A model generated the notes under the pieces. It was not told where the DNA came from. It worked only from the letters and a program-made list of their open reading frames with translations, and searched no databases. 64,000 bases of DNA, from positions 8,998 to 72,997 of the forward strand of contig MFDN01000008.1 of assembly GCA_001776935.1 (NCBI GenBank). Reading direction: 5' to 3'. Positions 27,342 through 29,921 of this stretch are shown here, one piece after another. A program made the position numbers and the translations under genes. Numbering within the stretch: position 1 is the stretch's first letter; the number at the start of each line of letters is the position of its first letter. The stretch is from Candidatus Daviesbacteria bacterium RIFCSPLOWO2_01_FULL_39_23 (GTDB lineage: Bacteria > Patescibacteriota > Microgenomatia > Daviesbacterales > UBA10151).

Positions 27342-28088
27342 TTGACAATACCCTATAGATTTGATAAGATACACGACAATATGATTGAAAGAGCTTTTAA
27401 TGAAGCATTACTACATAAAGGTAACAAAAAAGATGCACTTAGGGAATTTGCCATCTCTCAAGCAAGGCATATTCTTCAAGCTGCCGGCGTAGTTGATCCC
27501 GCAATTAAAGACCATGGAGTAGCCGTAAAACCTGAAGAATCAGTTGAAAAACCTTTTTACATGATCCCCGAAGGAGAAGTTGTTAAATTTATCCAAGAGA
27601 TCGGCGGTAAATCAGCGGAACAATTAGAGGCTGAAGTAAAATCTACCGGAAGGGAAGTCACTATATATGCTTCTGATTCGATTCATAGTCCTAAATTTGA
27701 AGTTCTTGATGAAGTTACTCCTCAAGAGTTAGCTAAATTTCCTGTTAGAGCCTTAAGATTCAGAGGTAATCCAACTACCAGACAATTATATGAAAAAATC
27801 CCGCAAACCAGATGTAGAATAGATGGAGAGGAATATATATTAGAACTTCCTAGAGCAGAAGTTGGACCCCACAAAGCTATAGCAGATAAAGACCAAGCTT
27901 TAAATGATTGGTATTATGTTATGCATGAGCCGATTACCGGCCGTCACGGCGATCCGGGCGTGTTCGAGGTCGGACGCAATTCTGATGGCCGGTTCCTCTA
28001 CGGCCCATGGGCTAGCCCTGACGACAGGTGGGCTCCTGACGATCAGTTGGTTGTGGCTCTCCGCAAGCTTGAATCTGTAAAACCTTAA
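27342..28088 (+). CDS. DGR target (variable) protein; its C-terminal 45 aa are encoded by the VR
   Basis: 248-aa ORF with a TTG start. The VR occupies codons 198-242. No signal peptide is seen. The gene begins 17 nt after the IS element. Confidence 0.75.
   Translation: MTIPYRFDKIHDNMIERAFNEALLHKGNKKDALREFAISQARHILQAAGVVDPAIKDHGVAVKPEESVEKPFYMIPEGEVVKFIQEIGGKSAEQLEAEVKSTGREVTIYASDSIHSPKFEVLDEVTPQELAKFPVRALRFRGNPTTRQLYEKIPQTRCRIDGEEYILELPRAEVGPHKAIADKDQALNDWYYVMHEPITGRHGDPGVFEVGRNSDGRFLYGPWASPDDRWAPDDQLVVALRKLESVKP
27933..28067 (+). repeat. DGR variable repeat (VR), 135 bp
   Basis: 116/135 identity to the TR. All 19 mismatches fall at TR adenines. Confidence 0.85.
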
Positions 28089-28409
28089 ACTCTTTGATTC
28101 TTACAATTAAAGAGTACTCTTTGAGTTTTTAATACTTTGTTTCTTTACCGCGTAGCGGCCGCTACAAATTTTTGATATATTACTTTTAGATTGGTTGTAT
28201 TGAACGGCTACGGCTTTTCAAAATCATTTTGGCAAATATATATTGAGAGCTTAGAAGGTTAAGGCTTTCTGGGGAGTAATAGTATTTGTCTTTAAAAAAG
28301 AATTACTTGGTATGGTATGCTTGCAGGATTTATTCCGCAAATAAAATACAGCCCTTTGTCTAAAGATTAGCTTTTTACATGGGCAGTGATAATAGATGGC
28401 ATATCATAC

Positions 28410-28544
28410 ATTACCGACCGTAACGGCAATCCGAACGTGTTCAAGGTCGAACACAATTCTAATGGCCGGTTCCTAAACGGCAAATGGGCTAACCCTGACA
28501 ACAGGTGGAATCCTGACAATCAGTTGGTTGTGGCTCTCCGAAAG
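28410..28544 (+). repeat. DGR template repeat (TR), 135 bp
   Basis: Non-coding copy of the VR. The variable positions are A, mostly in AAY codon contexts of the VR frame. Confidence 0.85.
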
Positions 28545-28871
28545 TTATTCTTTTCCCCGCTTTATTGGCGGGGTTTTTGTTGGTATTTCAAGGCTTTTTT
28601 TCCAGCCGTAAAGCATTTTACCAATTTCATCCAGTTTAGTGGACATACTCTCATATTGTCTATTAGAAATGAATTTTCCTTCCCAACAAGTTGTGACTAG
28701 AAATTTAAGTATATCTGCTGTAAAAATACATTCACTTAATAAGACTAATTTTTTATCCTTACCACTAAAATATGATGTGTATGAACTTTCCAGAAGATCA
28801 AGGAATTTATTTTCAATTCTTATACCCAGCGTGTAACGGGCAGTTCTAGGAATATGAGGCACAATACCCAT
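28545..28871 (-). CDS. avd: Avd-like four-helix-bundle DGR accessory protein
   Basis: About 108 aa from MGIVPHIPRTARYTLG... to ...KLDEIGKMLYGWKKSLE. This matches the four-helix-bundle/Avd (23S rRNA IVS protein) family pattern. It is encoded on the opposite strand to the VR, TR and RT. Confidence 0.6.
   Translation of the reverse strand: MGIVPHIPRTARYTLGIRIENKFLDLLESSYTSYFSGKDKKLVLLSECIFTADILKFLVTTCWEGKFISNRQYESMSTKLDEIGKMLYGWKKSLEIPTKTPPIKRGKE
28555..28580 (+). terminator. Rho-independent terminator-like hairpin immediately after the TR
   Basis: CCCCGC-tttattg-GCGGGG followed by TTTTTGTTGG. Confidence 0.5.
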
Positions 28872-28916
28872 CCAAAACAGATATCCCTCTTTGATTTTAC
28901 TGAGGATCGAGGTTTT

Positions 28917-28938
28917 AGAGAGAGAGAGAGAGAGAGAG
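28917..28938. repeat. (AG)11 dinucleotide microsatellite in the divergent avd/RT intergenic region
   Basis: agagagagagagagagagagag read directly. Confidence 0.9.
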
Positions 28939-28979
28939 TACGAAGACCGTGCCATATTAAATTTAATAGTATCATCTCT

Positions 28980-29921
28980 TTGGAGAATCTGCTTGTCTCG
29001 TGGCAGGAATTTTTAAAGGGCAAAAGAAAAAGGAAAGATGTAGCTAAATACTCATTCCGTTTTATGGATAATATCCTCAAGCTCCATCATGATTTAGTAA
29101 ACAAAACATATAAGCACGGCGCATATTATGCCTTTAAAATTAACGATCCCAAACCCCGCGATATCCACAAAGCAACTGTCCGGGACAGGATTATCCATCA
29201 CGTCATTTACAGGATTTTATATCCTTATTTTGATAAAAAATTTATATTTGATTCGTACTCCTGCCGGAATGATAAAGGCACCCACAAAGCATTAAATCGT
29301 TTCAAAGAACTTGCCGGCAAAACCTCGCAAAATCATACTAAGACCGTGTGGGTATTAAAATGCGACATCAGAAAATTCTTTGCCAATATAGATCATCGGA
29401 TTTTAAAAAATATTTTAAAACAGCATATCGTTGATGAAGATATTTTGTGGCTTTTGGAACATATCATTGACAGTTTCAACACAGAGAGTAAGGCAGGTGT
29501 TGGCCTTCCGTTGGGAAATGTTACCAGCCAGCTTTTAATTAATGTTTATATGAATGAGTTTGACCAGTTTCTCAAACGGAAATTAAAAGCACAGCATTAC
29601 ATCCGTTATGCAGACGATTTCTTAGTTTTGCATCAGAACAAATTTTATCTTGTTGATTTGATACCCCAAATATCAGCTTACCTGGAATCAAAATTAAAAC
29701 TTAATTTGCATAAGGATAAGGTTTTCCTCAAAAGATTTTCTTCCGGTGTTGATTTCTTAGGCTGGATTCATTTTCCCTATTACCGGTTACTGCGGACATC
29801 CACAAAACGCAGGATGCTCAAAAGGTTAAAAGATTCTCCCACAAAAGAAACACTTACCTCATACCTGGGTTTATTAAAACACGGAAACACATATAAATTA
29901 GCCCAGAAGATCAAAGTTTAA
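28980..29921 (+). CDS. DGR reverse transcriptase
   Basis: RT motifs are present, including [20 protein letters not shown] (DGR-type GxxxSQ) and YADDFLVL (YxDD). A probable TTG start at 28980 ([20 protein letters not shown]) is preferred. The long ORF starting at 28854 would run through the (AG)n tract. Confidence 0.85.

Follow-up and report, generated by a model that had tools for sequence, protein, structure and literature searches.

In the diversity-generating retroelement (DGR) of phage BPP-1, about 160 nt of RNA flanking the template repeat (TR) are needed for cDNA synthesis, and a duplex just 5' of the TR, the 'cPRT Stop', ends that synthesis (Handa et al., bioRxiv 10.1101/2023.10.23.563531); in the same study, the inspection of sequence upstream of TRs was limited to 40 nt. 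The spacer RNA of BPP-1 corresponds to the RT-10 motif of Rfam/Weinberg. In bacteria of the Candidate Phyla Radiation (CPR; Patescibacteria), 90% of DGRs have the architecture B3, TR-(avd)-RT, where RT denotes the reverse transcriptase (Wu et al. 2018, NAR, PMC5758913). The DGRs of Patescibacteria form a clade of their own ('DGR clade 2'), and the targets of this clade are usually without transmembrane (TM) segments or known domains and probably carry novel variants of the C-type lectin (C-Lec) fold (Roux et al. 2021, PMC8144416). The element described here lies in a 64,000-nt stretch of DNA, hereafter the window, that covers positions 8,998 to 72,997 of contig MFDN01000008.1 from Candidatus Daviesbacteria bacterium RIFCSPLOWO2_01_FULL_39_23. 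It combines adenine-specific divergence between a TR and the variable repeat (VR) of a target gene, an intact DGR-type RT and Avd, an invariant TR, and ongoing diversification confined to TR adenines. With a probability of roughly 0.9, it is a chromosomal B3 DGR of Candidatus Daviesbacteria that hypermutates a C-terminal segment of 45 codons in the gene for a 235-aa protein, by the mechanism proposed below. This kind of DGR is already known and is standard for CPR bacteria: elements with an inverted avd are the rule there and have been surveyed from these same aquifer genomes, the window genome very probably belongs to the set on which the published surveys drew, and as a DGR the element is not new in kind. 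What the locus offers is an unusually clean natural example, in which several assemblies of a single population are told apart almost exclusively by VR positions that are adenines in the template, together with three leads worth following (a structured leader RNA, a simple repeat ahead of the RT and an array of CTTTG repeats).

Adenine-specific divergence of the variable repeat

An earlier note, made from the sequence of the window without database searches, had proposed a complete DGR with adenine-specific mutagenesis, and the parts that such an element needs (RT, Avd and a VR/TR pair) are all present (Table 1). Re-derived from the window, the VR and TR are gap-free direct copies of 135 nt each on the plus strand, with starts 477 nt apart and a gap of 342 nt between them, exactly as the note had placed them. 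Homology is lost immediately after the last shared base, and a search of both strands of the 64-kb window found no further copy of the VR. The alignment reproduced the reported identity of 116/135 bases and the A-to-N signature, in that the TR base is A at every one of the 19 mismatches, where the VR has G (12), C (6) or T (1). Given 39 A among the 135 bases of the TR, the hypergeometric probability that all 19 mismatches fall on A is ~1e-12. Of the 39 TR adenines, 20 belong to the ten AAY codons, and 13 of the 19 mismatches lie within such codons.

The G+C content is 63% in the VR, 50% in the TR and 38% in the window, the high value of the VR being as expected with repeated replacement of A. 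Substitutions at TR adenines are mostly to G and C, a strong bias that raises the G+C content of the VR. The theoretical repertoire of the VR amounts to ~5e20 proteins. As the note had stated, the VR lies inside the 3' end of the target open reading frame (ORF); it is not, however, the very last 45 codons, since six more codons (LESVKP) and the stop follow at 28068-28088.

Diversification in the natural population

Twelve near-identical target proteins were aligned, and these are invariant over residues 1-182 and vary only in the VR. At the DNA level, eight contigs (L007-L014) encoding target variants were compared with the window over 2.7-5.5 kb. Outside the VR, these population contigs are ~100% identical to the window (one single-nucleotide polymorphism (SNP) each in two contigs, plus length changes in a (GA)n tract), while within the VR each carries 6-24 base differences. 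All VR differences among the eight contigs fall at TR-adenine positions, and the TR itself shows none. Across the five distinct VR DNAs of the window and L007-L014, 32 of the 39 TR adenines have been mutated and no non-A position has changed. The note had called for polymorphism confined to the A positions, and this is what is seen, across independent assemblies rather than in within-sample reads. Because the VR varies only at TR adenines in near-identical contigs while the TR stays constant, the element is active in nature. With only 0-1 SNP in 5.5 kb of flanking sequence but as many as 24 changed positions in the VR, diversification of the VR must be much more recent than any background divergence.

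Some variants of the target are defective. Three (P0020, P0022 and P0023) end prematurely inside the VR (GRFLGRPMG*) in a manner resembling a +1 frameshift at an 'AA' site of the TR, and a fourth (P0021) lacks the VR altogether. These defects may be indel errors of the DGR or assembly artefacts at a polymorphic site.

Table 1. Features of the DGR locus, in window coordinates.
Feature	Position	Strand	Remarks
IS481-family transposase, split over two frames (26304-27212, 27148-27324)	26304..27324	+	NCBIfam transpos_IS481 3.5e-43
Promoter-like site TTGACA-17-TAAGAT before target gene	27342..27370	+	consensus match only: 10/12, TG-extended
DGR target gene, 235 aa	27381..28088	+	VR in C-terminal ~175-aa domain; identical to OGE21759.1
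VR	27933..28067	+	differs from TR only at TR adenines in window and contigs L007-L014
CTTTG direct-repeat array	28089..28139	+	copies at 28092, 28119, 28135; spans the 'hairpins' of the earlier note
Palindrome GTAGCGGCCGCTAC + T-run	28152..28174	+	terminator-like, probably end of target transcript; partly conserved in L015, L071
Extended -10 promoter element TGATATATT, predicted for DGR RNA	28173..28181	+	family consensus TGnTATAcT
Structured 5' leader of TR RNA, ~220 nt	28188..28409	+	conserved, six covarying helices
Leader H1	28193-28208/28213-28225	+	variable-length hairpin insertions in H1 loop
Leader H2	28237-28244/28277-28284	+	
Leader H3	28250-28260/28263-28273	+	
Leader H4	28310-28321/28398-28409	+	ends exactly at TR start (28409|28410)
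Leader H5	28325-28328/28334-28337	+	
Leader H6	28347-28359/28377-28388	+	
A-tract + invariant ACTTGGT in leader	28293-28312	+	immediately 5' of H4 strand
TR	28410..28544	+	unchanged in all 8 population contigs
TR RNA 3' element	28545..28582	+	U-tract 28545-28554, GC hairpin 28555-28573, U-rich tail TTTTTGTTG 28574-28582
avd	28545..28871	-	108 aa from M29 of 136-aa ORF; inverted vs TR and RT
(GA)10 simple-sequence repeat	28918..28937	+	in avd-RT divergent spacer 28872-28979
DGR reverse transcriptase	28980..29921	+	Pfam RVT_1 8e-24; GNVTSQ + YADD; coordinates from TTG 28980, true start uncertain

Reverse transcriptase, Avd and the spacer between them

The RT carries both the YADD and the GNVTSQ motif that had been read as DGR-typical, and its best relative of solved structure is the RT of the Bordetella phage DGR (bRT, 8ub7; E 1.4e-35, the alignment starting at residue 38 of the long ORF). 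In the PDB search, bRT is followed by group II and retron-type RTs at ~1e-19 or worse (3e-19 for the next class); the class of the RT is assigned by motifs and by PDB and profile scores. The proposed Avd was recovered by the profile search of its ORF (Pfam bAvd, PF22296, 9e-13), its 49.1 bits exceeding the 40-bit gathering score, and it also matches NCBIfam DivGenRetAVD (8.6e-16, 58 bits, below the 80-bit equivalog cut-off). Homologues of Avd align from M29 of the 136-aa ORF. Both the RT and the avd ORF are intact and free of stops, with 62-74% identity to their relatives.

The spacer between the two divergent genes holds a simple repeat. In the population, the number of (GA) units is 10, 10, 10, 9 and 7, and all 43 related loci that were scored have (GA)3-21 or G6-18 in this spacer, with a repeat length that varies among near-identical related loci (G7, G8, G13, G18). 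Such variation in length is the hallmark of a contingency repeat, and the (GA)n/Gn tract ahead of the RT may be a phase-variation switch for the expression of RT and avd; if so, it would provide a simple on/off switching of hypermutation. The RT frame can be followed back through the (GA)n tract to ATG 28854 without a stop, and it overlaps the start of avd on the other strand. Between the (GA)n tract and TTG 28980 there is no canonical start, nor does one lie next to the conserved N-terminus IISLENLL. Gene callers place the start at ATG 29067 (285 aa), which removes the conserved IISLENLL.

The template RNA and its leader

Upstream of the TR, the candidate extended -10 element has its TA...T invariant in 28/28 aligned loci, with the start of the conserved RNA 7 nt further downstream. 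The structure of the leader was derived with RNAalifold and pair counts on 28 non-redundant loci (<93% identical). Over its 56 pairs, 96.7% of cells are paired, as against 37-47% with slid partners; compensatory changes on both sides occur in 34 pairs, as against 8-15 in the slid controls; and the covariation score is 0.48, as against ~0.1 in controls, the observed values being reached by 0 of 500 shuffles. The structure is specific to the plus (TR) strand, as follows from its frequent G-U pairs. No match to the leader was found in Rfam, the RT-1 to RT-19 motifs included, at the gathering threshold over the whole window or at E <= 10 around the TR, where there were chance matches to the terminator only. 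When a 20-nt motif of the leader was used as a probe, 72 metagenome loci were retrieved, most of which have a TR ~220-260 nt downstream, followed by an inverted avd and then an RT at fixed spacing. Loci with the motif alone were considered as an independent RNA family and rejected, since each is either a shortened leader left behind by a decayed cassette or a chance match.

The terminator-like hairpin that had been noticed after the TR is real (z = -3.8): in 28/28 non-redundant loci a GC-rich hairpin stands here, followed by GGTTTTT, and its stems covary. By its sequence, it is a predicted canonical intrinsic terminator. The A-tract of the leader is complementary to the U-tract that starts at the 3' edge of the TR (28544|28545). 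With both sides anchored and no gaps allowed, the share of paired cells is 79%, as against 55-68% in shifted registers, and the single G:C pair shifts by one position in step on both strands across the family. Cognate A-tract/U-tract pairs are more stable than non-cognate ones (p = 0.002, a value inflated by sequence relatedness). Two further sets of pairs were dropped, namely a pairing of leader TTTCGG with CCGAAA at the end of the TR, which is conserved and without compensation (e.g., L089), and the long-range RNAalifold pairs 39-43/551-555 with helices inside the TR, which show no covariation.

In three related loci (L001, L003 and L005), an insertion sequence (IS) splits the leader between ACTTGGT and ATAAAATACAG; that of L001 encodes DDE_Tnp_1 (5591-6878) and lies inside the leader, ~1.1 kb from the TR. 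For this IS-split element, at least 24 contigs, which come from several samples, encode one and the same target protein, with no VR variation. The split leader looks like a natural knockout, in agreement with a role of the leader.

Downstream of the variable repeat

Hairpins of the homing type had been suggested 3' of the VR, but these are AT-rich, not significant (z = -1.1 to -1.9) and absent in 7/8 relatives. Folding of nine loci gave no conserved hairpin, and a cruciform at this place was rejected. Likewise, the initiation of mutagenic homing sites (IMH/IMH*) with a GC-rich inverted repeat 3' of the VR, as in BPP-1 and Legionella, were not encountered in the window. What follows the VR instead is CTTTG, with 32 copies as against 2.1 expected in 10/10 related loci, and in a strand-specific manner; CTCTTTGA recurs in the avd-RT spacer (window 28887-28894). 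The CTTTG array may be a marker of the recipient site for the VR.

Target gene and protein

The target had been described as a 248-aa ORF, but its real start is ATG 27381 (235 aa), as in homologues and in identical GenBank proteins. The alternative start TTG 27342 was rejected in favor of ATG 27381, its hexamer being the -35-like part of TTGACA-17-TAAGAT. Truncation of the target by the IS element upstream was rejected as well: full-length homologues share the MIER start, and the 15 homologues are 174-243 aa long, with 12 of them at 228-243. None of these homologues has a Pfam domain. The target protein is the same as a GenBank protein of Candidatus Daviesbacteria (Table 1), and its 90%-identity cluster contains 11 sequences, several of them from Candidatus Daviesbacteria metagenome-assembled genomes (MAGs).

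The protein is small and soluble, lacks a signal peptide, and has a predicted helical N-terminal part of ~55 aa (low confidence). By sequence, no match to its fold was obtained in Pfam, NCBIfam or PDB (phmmer), and Foldseek against PDB gave none either. C-type-lectin folds are found in the solved DGR variable proteins Mtd (1yu0) and TvpA (2y3c), nanoarchaeal AvpA and Thermus TaqVP. The VR domain of the target may be a putative, remote C-type-lectin-like ligand-binding fold.

Host and related cassettes

Identity of the target to proteins of Candidatus Daviesbacteria MAGs, together with related loci in Patescibacteria genomes, places the host in the CPR. The relatives comprise one locus labelled Nitrospirae, 29 genome loci that are nearly all from Patescibacteria, and ~50 metagenome loci. 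All complete relatives are arranged as TR-(avd)-RT and have a VR/TR pair with the bias to A, and in nine relatives the VR/TR differences number 14-28 at A sites as against 0-5 at non-A sites; the orientation of the target relative to the DGR core is variable. The window core, with TR and RT on the plus strand and avd on the minus strand between them, is of the same B3 type. An inverted avd, which the note had considered atypical, is standard in CPR bacteria (Wu et al. 2018, PMC5758913) and is common to all related cassettes that were fetched.

Decayed cassettes are frequent. L015, L044 and L092 keep the target and TR with a fragment of avd only and no RT, an RT fragment is fused after the target in L016, and in eight loci (L046, L061, L074, L080, L090, L093, L094 and L105) the 5' part of the leader with its promoter is followed by unrelated DNA.

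Genomic neighborhood

The IS481 transposase, whose second frame matches Pfam rve and rve_2/rve_3, is split by a frameshift near 27150-27210 and is located between guaA and the DGR target. The suggestion that it makes the layout atypical did not hold up: the IS, which does not differ among the population contigs, is a bystander, and the target has its full length. Both the IS and the DGR sit in a purine-biosynthesis cluster (23757-33519) composed of a purQ-like gene, guaA, the IS, the DGR, purA and two tandem purP paralogues. On the minus strand, purA (29911-31179) shares 11 nt with the RT gene at the stop of the latter. In the window, no tRNA and no Rfam family was found at the gathering threshold.

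Proposed mechanism

According to the proposed mechanism, the TR would have a promoter of its own, the extended -10 element at 28173-28181, and would be made as a separate transcript of ~390 nt. This RNA would consist of the ~220-nt structured leader, the TR, and the GC hairpin with its U-run, which would stop transcription before it enters avd in the antisense direction. The TR RNA would be bound by RT and Avd, whose expression would start from the divergent spacer with the (GA)n tract. H4, which ends at the 5' edge of the homology, would act as the counterpart of the 'cPRT Stop' duplex of BPP-1, and at the 3' edge the U-tract would form a duplex with the A-tract of the leader, behind which the invariant ACTTGG stands just 5' of H4; this duplex would position the start of the cDNA. 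Functional RNA elements found 3' of the TR in BPP-1 would thus be placed 5' of it here. The adenine-mutagenized cDNA would finally replace the VR by homing.

If the leader is indeed a scaffold for RT and Avd, this would account for the ability of B3-type DGRs to function although no spacer RNA lies 3' of their TR, and it would define testable nucleotides for priming and termination. Covariance models could then be used to detect TR RNAs and decayed cassettes in CPR genomes.

Alternative explanations

An ordinary tandem duplication or gene-conversion tract, standing beside an unrelated retron or group II intron RT, would find some encouragement in the NCBIfam results, in which the top families of the RT are group II intron maturase, Drt3a and retron RTs. 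All of these are nevertheless below their cut-offs (group_II_RT_mat 142 bits vs 300; retron models 64 vs 235), and NCBIfam has no DGR-RT model. This explanation is refuted by the confinement of the VR/TR mismatches and of the population changes to A positions, by the PDB search, in which a DGR RT is the best match by 16 orders of magnitude, and by the adjoining Avd; Rfam scans at gathering threshold or E <= 10 also found no group II intron or retron RNA, and the probability left to it is practically nil. A fossil DGR is a more serious proposition, in which diversification took place in the past, the element is now off or decaying, and the VR differences are inherited standing variation. The ambiguous start codon of the RT, the commonness of decayed cassettes and leader-only remnants among the relatives, and the frameshifted or VR-less target variants all speak in its favor. 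It is nonetheless very improbable in view of the intact RT and avd, the perfectly conserved TR, and flanks that are almost free of SNPs around a VR that differs at up to 24 positions.

A different question is whether the leader is a cis-regulator, such as a riboswitch-like sensor or small RNA domain, that controls the synthesis or stability of the TR RNA rather than a scaffold for priming by RT and Avd. Its 5' position directly after the promoter, its several helices with highly conserved single-stranded stretches, and the terminator at the end of the RNA are as in many cis-regulators, and nothing in Rfam matches it. However, H4 and the A-tract complementarity coincide with both edges of the VR/TR homology, and the terminator sits after the TR, not between leader and TR, so that it cannot gate TR transcription. 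In addition, the flanking RNA needed for cDNA synthesis in BPP-1 would have no room here between the 3' end of the TR and the terminator. A purely regulatory leader is therefore considered unlikely, though less so than a fossil element.

Several points weigh against an active DGR working through a leader scaffold. The RT lacks a canonical start unless TTG 28980 or ATG 28854 is used, which makes RT expression in this genome uncertain. In the A-tract/U-tract pairing, which is of low complexity, one or two independent events account for all of the covariation. What H4 and the A-tract are proposed to do rests on positional analogy with BPP-1, and the uniform VR of the IS-split relative could reflect clonal sampling, not inactivation. 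There is also no canonical GC-rich hairpin after the VR; such repeats are present 3' of the VR in only 34% of DGRs (Wu et al. 2018, PMC5758913), and a GC-rich inverted repeat is therefore not obligatory.

Comparison with known systems

The element shares with BPP-1 (mtd-avd-TR-brt) its adenine mutagenesis, the Avd partner, a TR of ~135 nt and a C-terminal VR, and the RTs have the GxxxSQ and YxDD motifs in common (36% range, E 1e-35). Where the stem-loop bound by Avd stands in BPP-1, directly 3' of the TR, the window has the terminator hairpin (Handa et al.), and both elements have a duplex abutting the 5' end of the TR, which in BPP-1 is the cPRT Stop. The order of Sp47-56/Sp59-70 in the BPP-1 spacer (Sp), 'primer-like strand, 2-3 nt, stop strand', is mirrored in the window leader but 5' of the TR, and correspondingly the 140-nt Sp of BPP-1 lies 3' of the TR whereas the large structured RNA of the window lies 5' of it. 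The window differs further in that avd is inverted and 3' of the TR, that the TR RNA has what appear to be its own promoter and terminator, that there is neither an Rfam RT-10 match nor a GC-rich cruciform after the VR, and that the target is a small cellular protein, in contrast to the phage tail fiber diversified in BPP-1. A tentative view, held at somewhat less than even odds, is that in this CPR lineage the flanking RNA machinery is circularly permuted relative to BPP-1, so far the sole DGR whose mechanism is understood, with the leader providing the stop duplex and probably the primer strand, the (GA)n/Gn tract acting as a phase-variable switch, and the CTTTG array rather than a cruciform marking the VR.

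CPR/Patescibacteria DGRs are reportedly also the subject of Paul et al. (2017, Nat Microbiol). In the CPR DGR literature, of which neither that paper nor the supplement of Wu et al. (2018) was covered, no mention was found of a structured leader, a simple-sequence repeat before the RT or a CTTTG array. Compared with the CPR B3 DGRs (Wu et al. 2018, PMC5758913), the window element has the same gene order and orientation, a groundwater CPR host and a C-terminal VR. The targets are alike in being small, without a recognizable domain or TM segment, and with a VR class that cannot be assigned to the C-type lectins by sequence. Among relatives of the VR domain of the window, some carry a fused PcfJ-like or AAA domain, which agrees with category g of Wu et al. 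(2018, PMC5758913). In gene content, no difference separates the window element from the CPR B3 DGRs, and it is a member of that group.

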